Below are positions 2 to 63,202 of a stretch of DNA of 64,000 bases, in pieces (positions within the stretch are counted from its first letter, which is position 1; the number at the start of each line of letters is the position of its first letter). The DNA is from a virus (taxonomy: Duplodnaviria > Caudoviricetes): IMG/VR virus record IMGVR_UViG_3300014204_000112, positions 64,001 through 128,000 of that record; one strand, 5' to 3'. Both the position numbers and the translations under genes were made by a program. The notes beneath the pieces are model-generated. The model was given only the letters and a program-made list of their open reading frames with translations, was not told the DNA's origin and did not search any database.

Positions 2-1153
2 AAGGAGGATCTCAAATCTCTGAGATTAGCTCTGCATACTCTTGACGTTTCTATCGACAGCAACACGACTACTCTTAACAATTCATTGGCCCAATTGACC
101 AATATGAAGGAGGACCTGTCGGTCCTAAAGGATGCTCGTAAAAAGGAACTCGAAGAACGTATCGCTCAATTACAAGCTGACAAAGAACTGTATCAGAAAA
201 ATTACAACGAAATGACGGTAGCCGCGACAGCTTTGGACAAAGCAGTCGCTGCAGCAAGAGAAGCAAGAACAGCAGCCCAGTTGACCATTGCTGATTGGCA
301 GAAGAAGCTTCAGATTTACGAGAGCAATAAGTGCCCGCATTGTTTGTCAGATCTTACTGACGAGGGGCATTCGAAAATAAAGGACGAGATCGTTTGCAAG
401 AAAACCGAACAGGAAAAATTACTCCCAGTCCTTGCTAAAAAGGTTCAGGAAGCAGAGATGACTTTGACAGAAAAGAACGGAGAAAAGGAATTCGCCAGAA
501 ACCAGTTCTACAAGGTCGAAGCTATTCTGACACCATTGAAACGAGAGCTTTCATCCCTGTCGATAGATGAAATCGAAACTGAAGGTTCCGAATACATAAA
601 CGGAGTCATCGAATCGATCAAGAAGACGCTCGAAGAAGCCAGAATCGAAAAAGGCAAGATCTCCGAACAGATCAAGATCTCTCAGGAAATGGAGGACATC
701 CTTTCGGAGAACGGAATGAAACGTCTGCTAATGAGTCAAATCGTTCCAATTCTCAATAAGAAGATCCTAAGAACTGCAAAGATCCTCGATTTTCCATTCG
801 CTTTCGAATTCAACATGGACTTCGATCCTATCATAACCCAATTGGGAATACAGGTTGACATAGACTCTCTTTCTACTGGCGAACAAAAGAAAATGAATCT
901 GATAGTTTTGTTAGGCATCATTGAACTCATCAAGCTAAAGCACCACAGTGTCAATTTGCTATTCCTTGACGAAATATTCTCTTCCCTGGACGTGGAGTCC
1001 ATTTACCAGGTAGTCGACCTGCTGAAAACGTTCTCGAAAAAGTATCGAATGACCGTTTTTGTAATATCGCACGATCCGCTTCCTGAGGAACTATTCGATC
1101 GAAAGCTGTCAGTAAAGAAGATAGATCACTTCTCTGACATAGAATTCTCGTAA
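2..1153 (+). CDS. gp46: SbcC/Rad50-like recombination nuclease ATPase subunit (T4 gp46-like), 5'-truncated by the window edge
   Basis: Frame is open from nt 2; coiled coil with Zn-hook CPHC, ABC signature LSTGE, Walker B LFLDE and H-switch ISH. Confidence 0.92.
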   Translation, partial: KEDLKSLRLALHTLDVSIDSNTTTLNNSLAQLTNMKEDLSVLKDARKKELEERIAQLQADKELYQKNYNEMTVAATALDKAVAAAREARTAAQLTIADWQKKLQIYESNKCPHCLSDLTDEGHSKIKDEIVCKKTEQEKLLPVLAKKVQEAEMTLTEKNGEKEFARNQFYKVEAILTPLKRELSSLSIDEIETEGSEYINGVIESIKKTLEEARIEKGKISEQIKISQEMEDILSENGMKRLLMSQIVPILNKKILRTAKILDFPFAFEFNMDFDPIITQLGIQVDIDSLSTGEQKKMNLIVLLGIIELIKLKHHSVNLLFLDEIFSSLDVESIYQVVDLLKTFSKKYRMTVFVISHDPLPEELFDRKLSVKKIDHFSDIEFS

Positions 1154-30811: not shown

Positions 30812-33079
30812 TTACATCATTGCTCCTGGCGGAACGTTAGCTTTACCTTTTCCCCTGATCAGAACACCATTTTTATCTTCGGCTAAGTATTCTGCCACTC
30901 CACCGAATTTCTTTACGATTTCTGATTCTTCATGGCCGACCAAACATTCGATCGTTATGAAGTTATTCACCGGATCAACCGTATATTCAATCTGTTTCTC
31001 AGTCAATGCATCAGCAATATCTTGGAGCTTGTCTGCGTCTATCTTGTAGAATCCGCAGTACGGATTGACTGATTCCATTATAGGTAGAGCACTAGTTCCG
31101 GAGGTACCGCTAGAACCTGAAGTTCCTGGGCTAAGTTGAACTGGCATTCCATCCTGATAGTATTCCTGTTTCTTTTCCTCGAGAATCAAATCAACCGTAT
31201 CGTCAATCTCAATCACTGGAACTCCAGGTGATTTGAATTGAGATAGGTCTACTGTTTTCGATTCATTCAATTTTTCGCTTAGGTCACGGTTCATGTTGAA
31301 GAATTCTGAATGAATTGCATTTGGAGCTGCTGACTTGAATGCCGTGTAATCATTGTTGCGAACTGCATCCATTATAGATTCTTTGACTCCAGCGGTAGGA
31401 AGTTCCATCAGCCTTAGATCTTTCTTCAAGTTCAAGTTTCTCGAACGCTTACGCGCAAGTTCCAACTGAAGAGCTATGTCTCGTATCCTGCTCTTGTTTG
31501 CGGCTACGATGTTAGGCTCGTATTCCGGCCGAATTTCCTTTAGTAAGCTTTCAACTTCCCCGTCCGGAACAATAACCAGTCCTACCATGAAACTAGGATA
31601 GAGATTCACTAACTTGTGAAGAGCATTGACTATGGTTTCTTTTTTGAAAGGCTTTGCTTTTGAAGTAGCTCCACAGTGAACGCATACTAACAGGCAAGGA
31701 AGCCCATTCTCGTTGAACAAACCCTGTGCCGATTTTATGTGCCCTGGGTGAATGGGTTGAAAGTCAGAGATGATCAAGTTTACCGGTTTAGTTCTCCTAT
31801 CCTCAATTCCTTTGAAGCTCTCAAAATAACCAGGTTCCTTATCTTCACCAACGAACTCTTTGAATGTTGGAAAGTAATTTTCGTAAATTGCATCTCCCAT
31901 GATTACTTTGCTAATTTTGTCTACCTGAGTGTTCAGGTTGTCTTTCATCTCCTTCGTGAAGAACGATGAGCTTACCCTAATTTTTTTCTTCCTAAACATG
32001 TTGAGGAATACTCGATAGATTTCCTTGAAGTTCGGGTTCGATTCGATTATTTGAGTCACTCTTGCATCGTTCACCAATCCGAAATTAACGTTGAAGTCAT
32101 CTCGTTGTAGGAATTCAGGTATTTGAATGTCAAGGTCACGATACTTTTCTCCGAACTCCTTTATGAATTCTAAGTAAATGTGATTGACCAAGGAAATGTA
32201 CTTTTCTTCGTATGTTTCTCCTGCGACCTTGATTCCTCTAAGTTCGCTGAGCGAGTACTGTTCAATGAAGTTCATTAGGTCGATCACGATGATCCAGATG
32301 TAGTCATCGCTTTTCTTTTGGTTCTTGTCGCTGGCCCTTGCCTTAGCGTTAGCTTGAAAAGCTGGGTCGACCAGTTTCGCTAGGAATACTGGATCCTCAG
32401 TTTTCTTACCTTCCTCGTAGAACCTGAAAACGATTCCCTCAATGTCCTTGTCCAAAGAATCACGAAGGAATGTTGCTTCCATTTTCGGATTAAGGACTGA
32501 CATGATGTACTTCGTGAACGAAACTGTCTTGAACTTTTCGACAAGTTCGTCGAATGGAGTGTAAACGAATTCCTGAATTTTCTTCTTCTGTTCGTCCGTA
32601 AGTTTTCCCTGGAAAATGATTGGCGGTCTTTCGATTCCCAATAGGTCAGCCCATTTGTTCAATTCGTCCCTGCTCTGAACTGTTTCGGAAATATTTCCTC
32701 CAGCGTTCAAAATGTGGATGTAACTTAGAATGAGCTTGTTCTTTGGTAACCTATCGTACGCTATCACCTGAGCTTTCTTGTCAGCAAAGTACTCCATCCC
32801 GAACATGTACTGAACTGGAATCTTTTCGATAGTTTCCGGCGAGAGACTTTCGAAGTACTGAACTGCCGGTTCGAAATAACGACTTAGAACTCTATCGATG
32901 TACGAGAGCTCGCCGTTACGTTTGAAGTACTGGAATTTTGATGAGTTAGGATCAAGTTTCACGCCAAAGAAGGCTCCGTCCATCTTCTCATTAATGATGA
33001 CGGATTTATTAAGGAGATTCTCTATGAATGCCTTACCTTGCTTGTCTAAAACGTCCTTTAAGTGCGATAGTCCTGGCAT
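30812..33079 (-). CDS. RNA ligase-like nucleotidyltransferase fused to a HIGH-family (cytidyltransferase-like) domain
   Basis: Ligase motifs EKMDG (I), EGIVFR (IV) and AKLVD (V); C-terminal FQPIHPGH. Confidence 0.7.
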   Translation of the reverse strand: MPGLSHLKDVLDKQGKAFIENLLNKSVIINEKMDGAFFGVKLDPNSSKFQYFKRNGELSYIDRVLSRYFEPAVQYFESLSPETIEKIPVQYMFGMEYFADKKAQVIAYDRLPKNKLILSYIHILNAGGNISETVQSRDELNKWADLLGIERPPIIFQGKLTDEQKKKIQEFVYTPFDELVEKFKTVSFTKYIMSVLNPKMEATFLRDSLDKDIEGIVFRFYEEGKKTEDPVFLAKLVDPAFQANAKARASDKNQKKSDDYIWIIVIDLMNFIEQYSLSELRGIKVAGETYEEKYISLVNHIYLEFIKEFGEKYRDLDIQIPEFLQRDDFNVNFGLVNDARVTQIIESNPNFKEIYRVFLNMFRKKKIRVSSSFFTKEMKDNLNTQVDKISKVIMGDAIYENYFPTFKEFVGEDKEPGYFESFKGIEDRRTKPVNLIISDFQPIHPGHIKSAQGLFNENGLPCLLVCVHCGATSKAKPFKKETIVNALHKLVNLYPSFMVGLVIVPDGEVESLLKEIRPEYEPNIVAANKSRIRDIALQLELARKRSRNLNLKKDLRLMELPTAGVKESIMDAVRNNDYTAFKSAAPNAIHSEFFNMNRDLSEKLNESKTVDLSQFKSPGVPVIEIDDTVDLILEEKKQEYYQDGMPVQLSPGTSGSSGTSGTSALPIMESVNPYCGFYKIDADKLQDIADALTEKQIEYTVDPVNNFITIECLVGHEESEIVKKFGGVAEYLAEDKNGVLIRGKGKANVPPGAMM

Positions 33080-37813: not shown

Positions 37814-38194
37814 TTAGCCCTTATGCTTGCTTATTTCTATAGCCTGTAATTGTTTCATGGCTTTTTCCTTACTTAGGTGAGTGCCTAATACCTTTTTTCC
37901 GGACTTATCTAAAACGACCCACTTGTTACCGCGCTTACGAACCATTTCGTTCATAACGAAACTATCGAATGATTCGACTATTTGCTGAGCCGGAACCGAC
38001 TGAGTTTGCTGAATCGGTTGGTTAGCGACAGCTTGAACAGGAGGTTGAGTACGTTTCAAAAGATCTGAAACTTTCGTTCGTATCAGGTCGAGCTTTTGCA
38101 TTTCTTCCTGAGTGAAGGTCTTTTCATTGAGATCTTCTTCGATTAACGAAACGTATGCTAAGAACGAATCAAGTTGGGTGTTGTCCATTATCAA
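37814..38194 (-). CDS. Hypothetical protein with a basic C-terminal domain
   Basis: ESFDSFVMNE followed by VRKRGNKWVV..LGTH..KEKA..QL.AIE. Confidence 0.65.
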   Translation of the reverse strand: MIMDNTQLDSFLAYVSLIEEDLNEKTFTQEEMQKLDLIRTKVSDLLKRTQPPVQAVANQPIQQTQSVPAQQIVESFDSFVMNEMVRKRGNKWVVLDKSGKKVLGTHLSKEKAMKQLQAIEISKHKG

Positions 38195-38861: not shown

Positions 38862-40361
38862 ATGAATCAAACGTTAGAACAACAGATAAAGTCATTGGAT
38901 TTGAAGCAGAACGCTATCAAGATTCTCATCAACTCCTTCTACGGTGCGTTCGGCAACCGGTATTTTTACTTCCATAATAACGACATAGCTCAGTCAATCA
39001 CCTTACAGGGACAGGACCTCATCAAGTTCTCGATCAAGGCAATCAATCATTACTTCATGAACATGTGGCATGTCGATACCGAACTTCACGAAAAGCTCGG
39101 CATTCTCGGTCGTCCAATTTCCAAGATCGAAAAGGAAGCAGCAATCTACACGGACACTGACTCCGTTTACTCGTGCATCGAGTATGCAATCAATTCGATT
39201 CAAAACGACCTTCAATTAACTGACGAACAGGCTTTTCAGTTCTGTTTGGACATCAATGCTTACAGGCTCCACGGTTACTTTGAACGCTGTTTCGAAAAGT
39301 ACGCTCAGCACTTTAACACGAAGAATCGTCAGAATTTCGAGCTAGAAAACATATCTCGTGCAGGAATTTGGGTCGCAAAGAAAAAATACGTTCTCGAAGT
39401 TGTATCGAAAGGAACCAAGCTTCTTCCGAAACCGTACCTAATGATCAAGGGACTCGAAGCTGTTCAATCCTCATATCCTATTTGGGCACGTCAGAACTTG
39501 CAGAAAATTTACTGGATCCTTCTGGCAAAGGGATACGATCTCGATCTCGAAAGGGATCTCATTCCAGTAATGAAGGAAATGAAAGCCGAGATGGAGACAA
39601 TGCCCATCGATGAAATCGCTTTCAACTTCTCAGTTCGGGTTTACGAGGAACACCTACGAAGCTTACTACCATTGGTGATGGAAAAAGGAATGCCGATTTA
39701 TGGTCGTGCCTCTGCCTACCACAATCACGTAATACAGAAAACGAACAACCTGAAATATCCGTTCATTCGTAGCGGTTCCAAGATAAAGTTCTACTATGCA
39801 GCACATAATGAATACGATTTCGACGTGTTCGCATATGCACCTGGAGCCTTTCCTGAATTCGCAATGCCGATCGATCGTGAACACCAATTCTTCCGCCTAA
39901 TCGTGGAACCGATCAACAAATTGTTACTCGCAATAGGTTTCAGCGAACTTAGTTCGAAGCTTGCACGACACGTAGAAGTAATAAAATCAAGAAGCAGAAC
40001 TAAAGCTTTCACTGATGACGAGATCTATCCTCTGTACGTTGTGAACTCCGAAACTCTTGATTTCACGCCAATTCCCGAAAGCGTTCAGCATTTAGTTGGC
40101 CATCCGGAAATTGACATTCCGCCCGAGTTATTCCCTACCTTCATATCTTCGATTTCAATGTACGGTCTCTCGACCGTGATCGTTCCAAAACATGAACTTC
40201 AAAAGTACCGTGAACGTATCGCAAAGAAAAAAGGAATGACGATAACCGATCCATTCGAAATACCATACGAACTTTCTGGCATTATATCGACAAGATCGAA
40301 ACGAAAAACAAGAAACGCTCAAGCCGAGAATCGACTTCTGGACGAAACGAGGTCTGAGTGA
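38862..40361 (+). CDS. gp43: Family B DNA polymerase, C-terminal subunit of a split gp43
   Basis: Starts at motif B KILINSFYG, then SITLQGQ, YTDTDS, KKKY and IKGLE; no exonuclease domain or motif A. Confidence 0.9.
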   Translation: MNQTLEQQIKSLDLKQNAIKILINSFYGAFGNRYFYFHNNDIAQSITLQGQDLIKFSIKAINHYFMNMWHVDTELHEKLGILGRPISKIEKEAAIYTDTDSVYSCIEYAINSIQNDLQLTDEQAFQFCLDINAYRLHGYFERCFEKYAQHFNTKNRQNFELENISRAGIWVAKKKYVLEVVSKGTKLLPKPYLMIKGLEAVQSSYPIWARQNLQKIYWILLAKGYDLDLERDLIPVMKEMKAEMETMPIDEIAFNFSVRVYEEHLRSLLPLVMEKGMPIYGRASAYHNHVIQKTNNLKYPFIRSGSKIKFYYAAHNEYDFDVFAYAPGAFPEFAMPIDREHQFFRLIVEPINKLLLAIGFSELSSKLARHVEVIKSRSRTKAFTDDEIYPLYVVNSETLDFTPIPESVQHLVGHPEIDIPPELFPTFISSISMYGLSTVIVPKHELQKYRERIAKKKGMTITDPFEIPYELSGIISTRSKRKTRNAQAENRLLDETRSE

Positions 40362-48456: not shown

Positions 48457-48547
48457 ATACTTCAGCTATTTACGGTTATTTATCCGAAGAAATTACCTTC
48501 TTCCGGATAAAATCCGTATAGCCTCGGTCATGTTGGTTAGCGGGTTG

Positions 48548-48919
48548 TTATGTGGCATTAAGGGAGCATCGGTAATTCTAACCAGTGGGTTACTTCCTCA
48601 ATATTTCTACCACTTTCAGTCAACCAAAAAAACTGACCTTTATCTCGGTAGTCTAAACCATCTTCTAAATCATTCATTTCACAAACGTGCCATCTTCGTA
48701 TATCATACATTCCTTTATCAATTCCACTTACAAGTACATATTTACCATATTCAGGTAAATCTCTATATGTTTCAATTTTTTTGGTGTCATAATAATTTTA
48801 GCCACATAACAACGTGTATAAAACGTTGCCTTTCGTGGTCTTTTTTTAGTTTATACTAAATTTATAATTTTGTTCATTCTATTAAGTTCTATGTTGGCAA
48901 CGTTTCATACACGCAGCCG
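48548..48919 (+). mobile_element. Integron-like gene cassette 1 (gene inverted relative to its attC)
   Basis: Begins at G|TTATGTGGC (48547); its attC begins with the exact reverse complement GCCACATAAC (48801). Confidence 0.75.
48558..48790 (-). pseudogene. DUF551-like cassette gene with a frameshift in an A7 run
   Basis: Frame reads ..RDLPEYGKYVLVSG...EEVTHWLELPMLP*; the ATG at 48790 is out of frame by one A. Confidence 0.6.
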
Positions 48920-48925
48920 TTATAC
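48804..48925 (+). repeat. attC-like site 1 (122 bp)
   Basis: ACATAAC...CGTGTATAAAACGTTGCC / GGCAACGTTTCATACACG...GTTATAC; arms 17/18 complementary. Confidence 0.78.
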
Positions 48926-49138
48926 AACATTTATAAAATCCTCTATCCTTTGATTAACCCTCTTTAACTTTGAGTGATTTTCATCATTGTGATAAATCAA
49001 TTTTTTTCTACAATATTTTTCGTAGTTGCGTCCTCGTTCAGAGTTCATCCATTTTTCTTTTTGTAATAATCGTTCTTCGAGAATTGATTTTATTTGTTTT
49101 AAATCACTCAAAGTCATCGTTTCAATGTTTAATTCCAT
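48920..49138 (-). CDS. Cassette 2 hypothetical protein (72 aa)
   Basis: Likely start MELNIE at 49138 (the longer ORF call runs through the attC); the stop overlaps the GTT core site; AT-rich. Confidence 0.65.
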   Translation of the reverse strand: MELNIETMTLSDLKQIKSILEERLLQKEKWMNSERGRNYEKYCRKKLIYHNDENHSKLKRVNQRIEDFINVV

Positions 49139-49239
49139 ATAAATAAAACGTTGTATAACAAGGCATATATGTAATACCCTATTAAGGTTTGTACTATATT
49201 TTAAAGTTTCTGCATCAGGTACTGTATATATACCGACCG
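48920..49239 (+). mobile_element. Integron-like gene cassette 2
   Basis: Begins at G|TTATACAAC (48919); its attC begins with the exact reverse complement GTTGTATAAC (49150). Confidence 0.75.
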
Positions 49240-49245
49240 TTATAA
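49153..49245 (+). repeat. attC-like site 2 (93 bp)
   Basis: GTATAAC...GCATATATGTAATACC / GGTACTGTATATATAC...GTTATAA; all four arm mismatches are transitions. Confidence 0.72.
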
Positions 49246-49268
49246 GCAAGGCGGGAAGTTTTTCATAT

Positions 49269-59007: not shown

Positions 59008-59568
59008 TTAACGGATGTTCTCCATATCCTCGAACTTGGACAGAATGACATCGACATCGTCCTTCAATCCTGGAGAAACATCGACCATTTTGCTACCTAA
59101 ACTAACTGCACCGTGCCAAATGACGTCGAACTCTTTCGTTCGAGCTACACTAGGATCCTGTTTTTGAAGGTTGATGATGTCAACCAGTACAGTTTGTAAC
59201 AGCTCTTCAGCTGCACGCAAATTGATGGCTTTAGGATCTTCTTCCAAGAATCCGAGATATTCTGTCATCTTTTCTGCCATTTCTTGAAGTTCAGGATGGG
59301 CATCGACAGATGGAGTCGTGCTCTGCGGAGCGCTCGATTTCTTTAATGAGAATTTTGGAACCTTTACTATTACTCCTTCCGATCCGGTCAATTGAATTTT
59401 TGCGAAATCACCGTTAAGTTCTACGACTTGACCTTTTCCCCTGTAAGATTCAACGTAATCACCTTCTTCTATTTCTGGATTATCTGCGTTCTTTGCAAAT
59501 TCGGCTTCTGGATTTTCCATGAATTGATTTACGTCGAATTCTTCGAAAATCATCGTGTGTTTGCGCAT
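59008..59568 (-). CDS. Hypothetical protein
   Basis: N-terminal KHTMIFEEF; TATAAATA at 59588-59595. Confidence 0.7.
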   Translation of the reverse strand: MRKHTMIFEEFDVNQFMENPEAEFAKNADNPEIEEGDYVESYRGKGQVVELNGDFAKIQLTGSEGVIVKVPKFSLKKSSAPQSTTPSVDAHPELQEMAEKMTEYLGFLEEDPKAINLRAAEELLQTVLVDIINLQKQDPSVARTKEFDVIWHGAVSLGSKMVDVSPGLKDDVDVILSKFEDMENIR

Positions 59569-59586
59569 GATGATGGAGTATTTTGA

Positions 59587-59721
59587 TTATTTATACTCCA
59601 CCTTCACTCTGGACCTGAATTCTATTGGAAATTGATCTCCTGCTGCTTGGAATAGGTCGGCGAAGCATCCATCGACTAAATAAGTTACAGCCCAATCGTC
59701 CGGAGTCCTTACTGACCACAT
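59587..59721 (-). pseudogene. Displaced original 3' end of the DinG-like helicase
   Basis: SVRTPDDWAVTYLVDGCFADLF...* duplicates SIRHKDDWAVTYLVDGCFSDLF in the helicase. Confidence 0.85.
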
Positions 59722-59725
59722 AATC

Positions 59726-60493
59726 TCAATGTTCTAAATATTTCCAATTGCTAAATTTTGAACTTAATAATCTATATCTAATTGTCGTTACGGCTAACAT
59801 CAGTTGGTTAGAGGCATCGTGCAAACTTTCATAGATGATTTCGTCTATTTGAATTCTTTTTTTATTTGGTCCCGGCCGATTTTTGCTAGCTTTTCCAATA
59901 TTGCATTTATGTTCTTCAGTAAATGGTTTTTTAGACTTTCCCTTAAGCCTATCGGAAATTGTCTTCCTGCCAATTTCGCTCTTACTGTATTCTATCAGTT
60001 TTTTAGTAGCTATAGACCTACCGTTGCGTTCTTTTTCGGTATACCCATCAGTCTGCCATCTTTCACTTTTAGTTTTTGCTGCCTTTTTGCCACTTAGCAA
60101 TCTGCGTGATTTATCAATTCGAAAATTAATATCTCTCATGAGTTGACAAAATTCAGGTGATCGTTTTTTGCCAGTATTTGAGAGTTTTCGTTTTTCAATT
60201 ATTTGCATTCGATTTGGATGATTAGTTAATGTATCACCGCCTGTTCCACCACTTGCTATATTATAACCATTTACTTGAGAATTTAAGTTTTTAATCCAAA
60301 ATTTTTCTCTTTCACATAGGCTCTTTTTATTATTACATGTTTCTAAGACTTCCTTTTTAAAATTTTCCAATCCGTATTTTTTAATAGCTAATTTTATAAT
60401 CTTACCAGAACCGAAATAATTCGCTCTATCTTTTTCATCCTTACCTATGTAAAATTTTCCAGTTATTAAATTCGTAATTTTATAGATTTGCAT
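59726..60493 (-). mobile_element. Free-standing GIY-YIG homing endonuclease (Seg-like, NUMOD3)
   Basis: IYKITN...FYIG, YFGSG, E..WI and GYNI..GG; AT-rich. Confidence 0.9.
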
Positions 60494-60524
60494 GTGAGTT
60501 TGTTTTTATTTATATAACTCACAT
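60492..60524 (-). promoter_or_regulatory. 9-bp hairpin enclosing TATAAATA and overlapping the start codon of the GIY-YIG gene
   Basis: atgtgagtt-a-TATAAATA-aaaaca-aactcacATG. Confidence 0.8.
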
Positions 60525-60531
60525 AATGGTT

Positions 60532-62274
60532 TTACTTACGTACCATAGTTAATCTATTTTTAATTAAATCATCGTTGTGCAAGTCAGACTCACGAAATAA
60601 ATCCGAAAAGCAACCGTCGACCAAGTAAGTGACAGCCCAATCATCTTTATGTCTAATACTACGACCTAGTCCCTGCAGTACGGAAATTTGTGTCTTCCAG
60701 GTGTACCACTTTTGCGAGAACTTGAGCTTTGCAGCTACATACTTGTCACCGAGATGGGGGTACGGAACTTTCATGAACACCTGGAAGCGAGAAAGTTCGT
60801 CGATTAGGTTCAAACCTTCGAGCAAGGAAGGACCCATGAGGACCAGTCCCTGTTTCTTCTTCATTTTCTTCAGCATCGTGTCCTTCTCTTCCGATCCTTT
60901 GTACAGCAGGACCCTCTTGCTCACATTTTTGGGTAAAGCCTTCCACAATTTCTGGCCAAGCTCATAAGAACCAGTGTGAATTATTCCGGAATCCTCTGGG
61001 TGTGAGTTAAGTATGTTCACGAGGGTGTTTACTCCCCATTCGAAGTTATCCTCTAGGAATCTGGCAGACATTTTCTTGCCTGGATAGTAAATGATTGGCG
61101 AATTCTCCCAATTGAAATGAGAATCCATCTTGAAGTACTTAGCATTCTTTATTCCGTGATTGCGCATGAAGTCTGCTGGATTGCCCATCGTTGCAGTCAT
61201 TAACAACTTGAAACCGAATTGATTGAAGAAGTGTTTTCCCAAGAGGTAGTACTCATCGATGCAGTTAAAAACTATGCTCGTATCGTTCGGGTTTTTCACC
61301 ATCTTCTCGACTCCGACCTTGTCAATGATCTCGCAGTAATCTTCGAGCTTGCAGTGAACGTCCTTGCACCAGTCAGTGAGATTGAACACGACAAGCCAAT
61401 CCTTAGGCACGTCTCGTCCTTCGAATTCCCTTCCTGCTACTTCGCGAATGTCTGCGGTTGCTCCGACTACTCTCTCGTAAATCTTAGTGATTTCTTTCAG
61501 TTTTTCTAGCAGAACTCGGTTATCTTCTTCAGCGTACACATCATCGACTAAAGCTGTGAGCCTTTCGATGTCAATTCGTGGAAGTCTCAAGCCGATGTCG
61601 AACATGTCGCTTATCAGCTTCTCAACTTTCTTGTAGACTTCTCTTGAAACTATTGGGCTGAAATGACTTTGGGCGATGTCGAGTATCTTGTGAGCTTCAT
61701 CGCATACGACGAAGTCCCTCTTTGCAAATGGTGGCTGCTTGCCGTTCTCTACTTGTTTCTTGTCAACGTAATTCCTTTGAATGAGAGCGTACGGATAGGT
61801 CAGTAAAGCGAGAGGAGATCTGATTGCTTTTCTTCTTGCCATCAAGTAACCGCAGTGCTTGAAACAGGTCAAGGATTCGGCAGCATCGTAGGAAATTCCC
61901 TTGCTCTTGCAGTCTCCAACTGAGAACTTCTCGCCGTTGACCGCACAGTTGTAATTGTCAACGCCCTTTATGTTTCCCCAGTTCCATAACTGCATTTTCT
62001 TGAAGTCATTGACGTACTGCTGGTGGAGAACTAAATCTGACGCTAGAATGTAACCTCGTTTACTGTGATTTGTTAACACGCCTGCGACTATCATAGCGAT
62101 CCAACTTTTTCCACTCCCAGTAGGAGCATCCAATAAATAAATTCCATTTGGATTTTCAAAATAAGATTGAAGTATATCAATGATAATTTCCATTTGTTGT
62201 GGTCTAAATTTAAAATTAGAACCTAACTGCGTTTCTGTGAATTTCAATATTTCCTTTTCGAAATCAATTTCCAT
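60532..62274 (-). CDS. DinG/XPD-like SF2 helicase
   Basis: RPQQ, APTGSGKS, Cys cluster, DEAH, MTAT, EGLNL, KVPYP and QGLGRSIR..DD.AVTY. Confidence 0.9.
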   Translation of the reverse strand: MEIDFEKEILKFTETQLGSNFKFRPQQMEIIIDILQSYFENPNGIYLLDAPTGSGKSWIAMIVAGVLTNHSKRGYILASDLVLHQQYVNDFKKMQLWNWGNIKGVDNYNCAVNGEKFSVGDCKSKGISYDAAESLTCFKHCGYLMARRKAIRSPLALLTYPYALIQRNYVDKKQVENGKQPPFAKRDFVVCDEAHKILDIAQSHFSPIVSREVYKKVEKLISDMFDIGLRLPRIDIERLTALVDDVYAEEDNRVLLEKLKEITKIYERVVGATADIREVAGREFEGRDVPKDWLVVFNLTDWCKDVHCKLEDYCEIIDKVGVEKMVKNPNDTSIVFNCIDEYYLLGKHFFNQFGFKLLMTATMGNPADFMRNHGIKNAKYFKMDSHFNWENSPIIYYPGKKMSARFLEDNFEWGVNTLVNILNSHPEDSGIIHTGSYELGQKLWKALPKNVSKRVLLYKGSEEKDTMLKKMKKKQGLVLMGPSLLEGLNLIDELSRFQVFMKVPYPHLGDKYVAAKLKFSQKWYTWKTQISVLQGLGRSIRHKDDWAVTYLVDGCFSDLFRESDLHNDDLIKNRLTMVRK

Positions 62275-63202
62275 AGCTTAAAAACTTTAAACATTTTTCA
62301 ATACACATCGAAGGTTCTTTTAAATAATCGCTCTCCCAAATCGTTAATATCTTATACCCCAATCTATTAGCAACTCGACGCTTTATTATGTCTTTTTTCC
62401 AAAGATCATTAGCCGACAATCCATTACGAACTATCGTATTTTTTGAAAATTTCTTCGGATTGGCGTGCCAGTAATCTCCATTATACTCTATTATTTTTTT
62501 ATGTTCTATATCGCATAAATCAAAATAGTAATACTGTACGCCATCAAATATCTTCAATTGGTTTTTTCCGAACAACAGAGGCTTTCCTAGTTTTTCTTGT
62601 AAAGTTTCAGCCAATTGCAATTCTGAAGAAGACGTTACTTTCCAAACTTTTGTTTTTGGAGATTTAGAAAATTTTCCAGCACGGTACTGGGTTTCCATTT
62701 TTGTGCTCCAACTCGCATTAGTTTTCTCATATCGTTCCGTTCCAACTTTTTCCCCGTATTTTTCAATGTATTTTCGTTTAAGACGAGTACTTTGCCTTTC
62801 TTTTAAGGCTGAGATTGCATCTGTTTCAGAATATCCCTTGTCCAAGAAATACTGGATAGTTGTATTAGATTTGTGATTTTTTACTTTTTTCTCTTGTACT
62901 ACTTGAAATTCTCTAACCTTATTAATGGCTTCGATATTAGAATAACCTCTAGCTTTCCAAAATTCAACGGTCACTGGAAATTTTATTAGATTTCCACACA
63001 ATTTAGAGCACGTTTTATGAGGATACCCGAATCTAACGAATGGCGTTTCGTTTCCACACACAACGCATATTCCTTCGTTAGGAATTTTCAAATATTCATC
63101 GTAATACTCCTTAGTGGTTATTTTGTGTGTGTATTTAATGTGTTTTGATAAACCGTTGACGGTTGTAAAATTCCTATTGCATAATTTACATGAAGTTTCC
63201 AT
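62264..63202 (-). mobile_element. Free-standing homing endonuclease (Vsr-like/EDxHD-type) with zinc fingers
   Basis: C2H2 finger, CVVCG..TCS..C, FWxxRGYS repeats, IIEYNGDYWH.NP and IWESD; AT-rich. Confidence 0.85.

Follow-up and report, generated by a model that had tools for sequence, protein, structure and literature searches.

Integrons, in which an IntI integrase recombines attC-bounded gene cassettes at an attI site, are regarded as bacterial devices whose single-strand recombination depends on a domain unique to IntI. Clusters of attC sites lacking an integrase (CALINs) have also been reported in phage genomes (Qi et al. 2023, PMC9892861), in a study that used classical attC detectors and IntI1, showed that IntI1 recombines 5 of 6 phage-borne attC sites, and did not report a cognate phage recombinase, arrays or an inverted gene orientation. 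A different kind of shuffling is documented for the PeSLs of T4-type phages, mobile promoter/stem-loop cassettes that flank small accessory ORFs in the hyperplastic regions of large lytic phages, such that relatives differ by whole ORF modules (PMC2839356, PMC4122927). PeSLs are near-identical direct repeats holding an early promoter and a stem-loop and recombine by homology, with no dedicated recombinase.

We examined a locus downstream of clpC in a 214-kb phage contig (Duplodnaviria; Caudoviricetes; IMG/VR record IMGVR_UViG_3300014204_000112), within a 64,000-nt stretch covering positions 64,001 to 128,000 of that record, here called the window. The locus is an AT-rich block (27-33% GC against 42-45%) that replaces an outer-membrane-protein-like (OMP-like) gene found in the closest relatives and holds two units on the coding (minus) strand, each consisting of ATAAC, a 3-5 nt bulge, a long hairpin, GTTAT+x, a small ORF, and then x'+ATAAC, where x' is the complement of x (Table 1). 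The original prediction, that these are two integron-type cassettes bounded by attC-like sites, with cassette-specific pairing of the ends, genes inverted relative to their sites and no integrase nearby, was confirmed in its sequence features and supported in each of its main points. Comparisons were made with loci in other contigs, designated L followed by a number.

Table 1. Features of the two-cassette block, in window coordinates; sub-positions on the minus strand are given in the direction of that strand where so written.
Position	Strand	Feature	Positions within or paired with the feature	Homology and other observations
48541..49258		AT-rich block, 718 bp	Left edge at 49258/49259	Replaces 889 bp of an L001-like ancestor
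49239..49258	-	Stub: last ~20 nt (ending in TATAAC) of a truncated third cassette	Joined to ATGAAAAA, the start of the replaced OMP-like gene	Homology to L001/L002/L009 and L297 ends at 49259; the segment has no counterpart in those relatives; cassette ends of the form ..TTGCTTATAAC followed by G occur in recombinase-linked arrays
49147..49251	-	attC-like recombination hairpin 2 (palindrome 49153-49245)	Core TAAC 49242-49239; 5' arm 49234-49218; 3' arm 49178-49162; GTTATACAAC 49159-49150	70 bits, E 1.2e-11 (minus strand); 21.9 bits (plus strand)
48920..49138	-	ORF2, 72 aa, function unknown; cargo of cassette 2	Stop codon TAA inside the terminal core	40 homologue clusters at 63-94% identity; no family found with Pfam, PHROGs and Atlas
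48919..48932	-	3' end of cassette 2 (x' plus ATAAC)	Complementary to 49159-49146, just after the cassette's own hairpin; 14 nt with one mismatch, which is a G.T wobble on the minus strand	Homology with L081, L082 and L107 ends exactly here
48798..48931	-	attC-like recombination hairpin 1	Core TAAC 48922-48919; arms 48913-48896 and 48830-48813, 18 bp; loop 65 nt; GTTATGTGGC 48810-48801	59.5 bits, E 1.9e-9 (minus strand); 22 bits (plus strand); 76% identical to a hairpin of array 2 in the same genome
48558..48797	-	ORF1, DUF551-like; cargo of cassette 1	Open from stop to stop; proper ATG at 48790 out of frame because the A-run at 48776-48782 has 7 A where 8 bases are needed; stop 8 nt before the end of its core	Pfam DUF551, E 1.5e-3, residues 14-77; 56 homologue clusters; P0048 and L086 read MTPKKIETY in one frame
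48544..48556	-	3' end of cassette 1 (x' plus ATAAC, then AAC); right-hand junction with the phage backbone	Complementary to 48813-48801, just after hairpin 1; 13 nt, perfect	Same TAATGCCACATAAC end kept in L085, after which the sequences diverge; homology to L001 resumes at about 48547

Both ORFs are real, with homologue clusters at 61-94% identity. A megablast of the region against GenBank phages returned no match, and an Rfam search of 46-52 kb gave nothing relevant. Hairpin 1 folds far better than shuffled sequences as DNA (z = -4.5 on the minus strand), and the block as a whole gives z = -5.7. Hairpin 2, the stem of which has two mismatches and two wobbles, does not beat shuffles on its own (z = +0.9), although its orthologues in L081, L107 and L094 form clean stems with compensatory changes. 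A perfect 13-nt inverted repeat is not by itself significant genome-wide (11 observed against 6-15 in simulations), and the significance of the locus comes instead from covariance-model hits, family-wide end pairing and the boundaries of homology.

A covariance model (R1) was built only from 43 hairpins that lie next to a 267-aa tyrosine recombinase in other phage contigs. RNAalifold on these sites predicts 25 pairs, 17 of which have compensatory changes, with G.T invariant at two positions, and TAAC and GTTA are invariant in 251 sites and in both window sites. The sites fall into two sharp length classes of about 88 and 126 nt. Model R1 hits the whole 214-kb genome only five times: at the two palindromes of the original prediction, in a strand-specific manner and with hairpin 2 as the best hit, and at three sites in a second array outside the window. 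In 80 recombinase loci, 280 hairpins lie upstream on the recombinase strand, whereas only 3 lie on the other strand and 2 downstream, and a conserved attI-like TAAC followed by TAT.ATATATA lies about 60 nt before the recombinase ATG. The recombinase is encoded beside arrays in 225 IMG/VR contigs, including relatives of this phage: the contigs of two ClpC relatives, which hold L017 and L020, also hold the recombinase with arrays (loci L136 and L153). No tyrosine recombinase (PF00589), serine recombinase or Y1 transposase was found in the present contig, which is 83% complete, and tblastn of the recombinase against it gave only noise (E above 3); neither the recombinase gene nor the attI-like site is present in the contig. 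With two sites 350 nt apart and no PF00589 match in 214 kb, the locus satisfies the operational definition of a CALIN.

The two ends of each cassette pair with one another beyond the core. Across 186 cassettes, ends of the same cassette match at 6.95 of 10 positions, with a run of at least 5 in 63% of cases; across a hairpin the corresponding figures are 3.6 of 10 and 1.6%, and for random pairs 2.5%. The window cassettes score 9/10 (cassette 2) and 7/10, against 2/10 across the hairpins. Such pairing, as the original prediction argued, implies crossover at the core. The hairpin-2/ORF2 unit occurs in L081/L082, L107 and L093 with different flanks, homology running from TATAAC to TATAAC. L081 and L082, two near-identical contigs, differ by exactly one 436-nt unit with ATAAC at both junctions, so that relatives gain or lose units exactly at the core, although this was the only clean unit-sized indel to qualify among 80 recombinase loci, which include few near-identical pairs. 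The orientation of the genes, inverted relative to the site, is the rule in phage arrays (110 to 3). In cellular genomes, by contrast, the same hairpins sit on the non-coding strand after each ORF (8 to 1), and the structure therefore does not depend on being part of the mRNA.

Based on these observations we favor, with reasonable though not full confidence, the explanation that the block is a two-cassette remnant, plus the stub of a third, of an integron-like site-specific cassette system used by phages. These are probably phages of Bacteroidota, and Bacteroidota genomes use the system as well. Read on the coding strand, a cassette begins with a recombination hairpin (an R-box TAACG pairing with TGTTA, a 3-5 nt bulge on the 5' side and a stem of about 20 bp with fixed G.T wobbles), continues into GTTAT plus about 6-9 cassette-specific bases and a small gene, and ends with the complement of those bases plus ATAAC. 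We infer that a circular cassette carries the complete folded site and that a tyrosine recombinase exchanges one strand at ATAA|C (G|TTAT on the other strand), leaving the hairpin at the head of the cassette and the matching R-arm at its tail; no excision or other recombination event was observed directly, and the chemistry, the strand that folds and the source of the enzyme remain inferences. The cassettes here would have been placed either by a recombinase acting in trans, from a co-infecting phage or the host, or by import as a fragment of an array. The block appears to have since decayed, with a deletion at the left edge, a degraded hairpin 2 and a frameshifted ORF1, so that this copy looks like a relic. 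The left edge is not at a core but is a break inside the truncated third cassette and the start of the replaced gene, so general or illegitimate recombination was involved at least once. This reading explains why an AT-rich pair of small genes replaces a conserved gene downstream of clpC.

We consider it somewhat more likely than not that large phages, probably of Bacteroidota, run their own integron analog, in which a short Xer-like recombinase captures and reshuffles hairpin-headed cassettes on folded single-stranded DNA, and that cassettes oriented this way also spread in trans into recombinase-less phages such as this one. If so, single-strand cassette recombination does not require the IntI-specific domain, and phages have a dedicated site-specific route for acquiring accessory genes. 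An active enzyme would give a concrete mechanism for the turnover of small accessory genes in hyperplastic regions, would offer a test of whether the I2 helix is really needed for hairpin recombination, and would allow mobile phage accessory genes, among which counter-defense genes would be worth looking for, to be found by their boundaries alone.

Another hypothesis, which we consider unlikely, is that the hairpins are regulatory modules, such as promoter/terminator or RNA-processing stem-loops like the PeSLs, that genes are shuffled only by homologous recombination between similar hairpins, and that the recombinase linkage is incidental. In phages the hairpins are on the coding strand and would be part of the mRNA, and the loops carry a conserved motif. 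Moreover, most homology blocks shared between arrays are the hairpins alone, and hairpin 2 plus its leader precedes a different ORF in L094, so exchange by homology within the hairpins happens too; homology-block ends are not enriched at the downstream ATAAC. However, hairpins 1 and 2 share only the cores and an 11-mer, which is too little for homologous exchange, and cassette-specific end pairing is unexplained by homology-driven exchange. The polarity and adjacency to a recombinase, the conserved attI-like site and the non-coding location of the same structure in cellular arrays also argue against this hypothesis, and a scan found no excess of sigma-70-type promoters and no T-run terminators at the hairpins.

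It is less likely still that these are classical integron attC sites recombined by a true IntI integrase of the host, one of the two sources of enzyme suggested in the original prediction. The system shares with integrons folded imperfect hairpins with AAC/GTT R-boxes, matching cassette ends, arrays of promoter-poor small genes and a tyrosine recombinase with an attI-like site at one fixed end of the array, and in cellular members each ORF is followed by its site. R1 weakly matches the bottom strand of the aadA1 attC in a class 1 integron with the same polarity (16.9 bits), the strand with the special structural features corresponding to the attC bottom strand, but R1 finds only this 1 of about 6 classical attC sites even with filters off. 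The enzyme linked to the sites is Xer/IntI-like but not a classical IntI: it lacks the IntI-specific insertion (the I2 helix region), only 34 residues standing opposite residues 176-257 of VchIntIA, and TIGR02249 scores 155 bits, in two stretches, against a cut-off of 265. A bulge and G.T wobbles appear to stand in place of the classical extrahelical bases, and in phages each hairpin precedes its gene, both window ORFs lying on the hairpin-sense strand. The phages studied by Qi et al. include a phage of Bacteroidota, Polaribacter P12002L, in which R1 finds four sites of this family; those at 38-39 kb and 32 kb do not match the two sites whose primers are listed, the only two that the main text reports for this phage. 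The one site of this type that was tested, P12002L_attC1, which looks like this family, did not recombine with IntI1.

We regard as very unlikely that the units are single-strand transposons or MITE-like elements (IS200/IS605-type, or PATEs) moved by an HUH Y1 transposase that inserts 3' of a short target such as ATAAC. Insertion after a fixed pentanucleotide, a subterminal hairpin, the lack of target duplication and the strand-specific structure would fit, but no PF01797 match was found in this contig, the gene consistently next to the arrays is a tyrosine recombinase of the Xer/IntI kind, each unit has only one hairpin, and hairpin sequences vary freely with compensation, unlike transposon ends. 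That the palindromes and end repeats are chance features of AT-rich DNA, as the chance-level count of inverted repeats and the weak fold of hairpin 2 might suggest, is refuted by the model E-values, the compensatory changes in orthologues and the fold of the whole block.

The distribution of the cassettes was examined further. A 16-mer scan of viral contigs returned mostly chance hits, 3 of the 35 being real. A metagenome scan with the clpC-end pattern gave one more relative, L297, which carries the OMP-like gene and no cassettes. R1 found no sites in the clpC-neighbor loci of eight relatives (L001, L003, L004, L017, L020, L037, L040 and L041), so the clpC-downstream spot is not a regular array position. 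In the ClpC relatives L153 and L136, the platform of attI-like site and recombinase gene lies upstream of genes syntenic to window 59.3-62.5 kb.

The window derives from a single 213,922-bp IMG/VR virus contig of 42% GC, which CheckV rates as 83% complete. All genes around the finding lie on the minus strand, the order being a 658-aa ClpC-like ATPase, the block in question and a 173-aa acidic protein (p173), and the block has a GC content of 27-33% against 41-45% for its neighbors. The repeats on which the original prediction of two integron-type gene cassettes with attC-like sites was based are present: a perfect 13-nt inverted repeat around ORF1, a 14-nt repeat around ORF2, whose single mismatch is a G.T wobble on the minus strand, and an 18-bp hairpin between the two ORFs. 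Hairpin 1 folds much better than shuffled sequences (z = -4.5) whereas hairpin 2 does not (z = +0.9), and the whole 831-nt stretch folds as four consecutive long-range domains with z = -5.7. However, a perfect 13-mer inverted repeat is not unusual in 214 kb, and the case therefore rests on other evidence. The coordinates of the features are collected in the table.

Coordinates of the cassette block, its surroundings and related features in other sequences
Feature	Sequence	Coordinates	Strand	Remarks
ClpC-like ATPase, 658 aa	window	51245-49269	-	
Stub of truncated cassette 3, 20 nt	window	49258-49239		
Model R1 hit (hairpin 2)	window	49147-49251		70 bits
Model R1 hit (hairpin 1)	window	48798-48931		59.5 bits
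Hairpin loop, example	window	49217-49179		also alignment A2 columns 40-75
ORF1 start ATG	window	48790		out of frame with the conserved DUF551-like frame
A-run of ORF1	window	48776-48782		7 A
Hairpin just upstream of the 173-aa gene	window	48466-48520		conserved in L001 and L297
Acidic protein, 173 aa (p173)	window	48456-47935	-	
Second cassette array	L084	3040-4600	-	own genome 202,040-203,600, outside the window
Three R1 hairpins of the second array	L084	4459-4600, 4036-4178, 3262-3394		genome 202.3-203.6 kb
Unit with a 26-bp stem enclosing a 55-aa ORF	L084	3492-3732		
HNH endonuclease gene near the second array	L084	5782-6411		
Region compared in ClpC relatives carrying the recombinase	L153 and L136	L153:9326-11958 and L136:4086-8567		against window about 59,300-62,500
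Four R1 sites	L287 (Polaribacter phage P12002L, NC_028924)	38026-38099, 38870-38945, 39113-39254, 32214-32290		
Two copies of a different ~50-nt direct repeat preceding small ORFs, followed by a tRNA-like sequence	L107 (reverse complement)	about 509-560 and 855-905, and about 960-1040		downstream of the ORF2 cassette in the 219-kb contig

Comparison with relatives shows that the block is a replacement. The closest relatives (loci L001, L002 and L009, with ClpC 92% identical) match the window at 91-94% nucleotide identity up to 49259 and again from about 48547, and between these points they carry 889 unrelated bp with a gene for a 206-aa signal-peptide, OMP-like protein. A further relative, L297, has clpC, the OMP-like gene and p173 with nothing else. 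The window keeps only ATGAAAAA of the OMP-like gene, so the left edge is a break inside a gene and inside a truncated cassette, while the right edge coincides with the ATAAC core. The clpC-p173 interval varies in all 50 relatives examined. The hairpin just upstream of the 173-aa gene lies outside the cassette block and is probably a regulatory or terminator element of the backbone.

The two genes are real and travel with the sites. ORF1 is DUF551-like and ORF2 has no family, and both have many homologs at 61-94% identity in metagenomes. In L081 and L082 (Logan contigs) and L107 (a 219-kb viral contig), ORF2 is preceded by the same hairpin 2, and homology to the window runs from the TATAAC before the hairpin to the TATAAC at the end of the ORF and then stops, with three different flanks; the hairpin-2 stems differ by compensatory double changes. 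L081 and L082 are near-identical except for one 436-nt unit (hairpin plus ORF) with ATAAC at both junctions. In L085 the ORF1 homolog keeps the 3' core, and the sequences diverge right after it. In loci L083, L086 and L087 the same genes sit in tight operons without any cores.

The contig of L094, which carries an ortholog of hairpin 2, has at least 12 consecutive units of the same build, directly followed by a 267-aa tyrosine recombinase. The recombinase carries PF00589 plus Phage_int_SAM_4, and its best NCBIfam matches are XerA and integron integrase, all below cut-off, with the integron-integrase match split in two. Against VchIntIA (2a3v), only 34 residues stand opposite residues 176-257, the region that holds the IntI-specific insertion, and IntI1 on plasmids aligns with the recombinase only over residues 1-177. 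Relatives of this recombinase are encoded in 225 IMG/VR contigs, including those that hold L017 and L020, which are ClpC relatives of this phage. In the best 80 loci, 280 hairpins lie upstream of the recombinase on its own strand, three lie on the other strand and two lie downstream. Between the last cassette and the recombinase ATG there is a conserved attI-like sequence starting right after TAAC.

Analysis of 251 unique sites gives the consensus AT(T/G)-4N-(A/C)TAAC, then G(G/T)TT, the stem and loop, then T-GTTA(T/G). Site lengths are sharply bimodal, at about 88 and about 126 nt, with hairpin 2 falling in the first class and hairpin 1, at 116 nt, sitting just below the second; minor classes occur near 79, 115 and 190-200 nt among the recombinase loci (L127-L206), which suggests discrete hairpin lineages or a length constraint. 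An alignment of 43 diverse sites gives a consensus of 25 pairs, of which 17 have compensatory changes, with two invariant G.T pairs and a 4-nt bulge beside the R-box; the structure is therefore strand-specific. The hairpin loops carry a conserved A/T-rich motif (roughly AAAnTTTAAATTTAnnAC) that is shared across hairpin families, and which could be a promoter, a binding site for an accessory protein, or part of the recombination site.

To examine whether the window sites belong to this family, we ran a covariance model (R1), built from those 43 sites and from none of the window's, over the whole genome of this phage. Apart from weak opposite-strand echoes, it gives exactly five hits up to E = 5, two of which are hairpins 1 and 2 and three of which lie in a second, larger AT-rich cassette array outside the window (L084). 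This array has matching cassette ends, and one of its units has no ORF; it also contains a truncated radical-SAM-like ORF (CNFKCPYC), and a small palindrome of the form TAAC-CGC..GCG-GTTA sits at its end.

In 186 cassettes of recombinase-linked arrays, the sequence after hairpin n is complementary to the sequence before hairpin n+1, well beyond the core, with a mean of 6.95 of 10 positions and a run of at least 5 in 63%. The two sides of one hairpin are no more complementary than random pairs (3.6 of 10, with 1.6% against 2.5% for random). The window's cassettes score 9/10 and 7/10, and the across-hairpin comparisons score 2/10. This is what a strand exchange at the core on one side of a folded site predicts, by the same logic as attC R''/R', although no excision or integration was observed, and the folded strand and the cleavage position within ATAAC are inferred.

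Qi et al. 2023 (PMC9892861) reported 17 CALINs in phage genomes and IntI1 activity on five of six phage sites. Their Polaribacter phage P12002L, a cultured Bacteroidota phage, has four R1 sites, flanking a DNA methyltransferase gene and a Mom-like gene, which do not match the two sites whose primers they list, and the one site that they tested which looks like this type did not work with IntI1. PeSLs, the promoter/stem-loop cassettes of T4-type phages, are the nearest phage-specific analog, but they work by homology between direct repeats. Full-text searches found no paper describing hairpin cassette arrays beside an insertion-less Xer-like recombinase in phages.

On a class 1 integron, R1 weakly matches the bottom strand of the aadA1 attC and misses the other sites, so the hairpin-sense strand corresponds to the attC bottom strand, but the site class is distinct. 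Cellular homologs of the recombinase (40-50% identity) are mostly from Bacteroidota; the assignment of the phage's host to this phylum is indirect. They have R1 sites downstream of the gene on the opposite strand (47 of 48), with ORFs on the other strand, each followed by its site. Phage arrays have the ORFs on the hairpin-sense strand, 110 to 3, and the original prediction's remark that both genes are, unusually, inverted relative to their sites therefore describes the phage norm. In both kinds of array the recombinase sits at the same end of the array in site terms, which also shows that the conserved structure does not depend on being part of an mRNA.

No tyrosine recombinase, serine recombinase or Y1 transposase is found in this contig. 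In L153 and L136, loci of ClpC relatives that carry the recombinase, the array and recombinase platform lies directly upstream of genes syntenic to window positions about 59,300-62,500, and it is not present at that place in this genome. The most economical reading has two steps: first, cassettes entered near the present right junction, either by recombination in trans, the source of the enzyme being inferred, or as a fragment of an array; second, a deletion removed the rest of cassette 3 and the OMP-like gene. However, a single illegitimate replacement cannot be excluded. Decay is visible, in that hairpin 2 has lost two pairs and ORF1 needs one more base in its A-run to read MTPKKIETY, as its intact homologs P0048 and L086 do; L085 likewise has one more base. 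The difference in ORF1 may be a real frameshift, a slippage site or a homopolymer error in the assembly.
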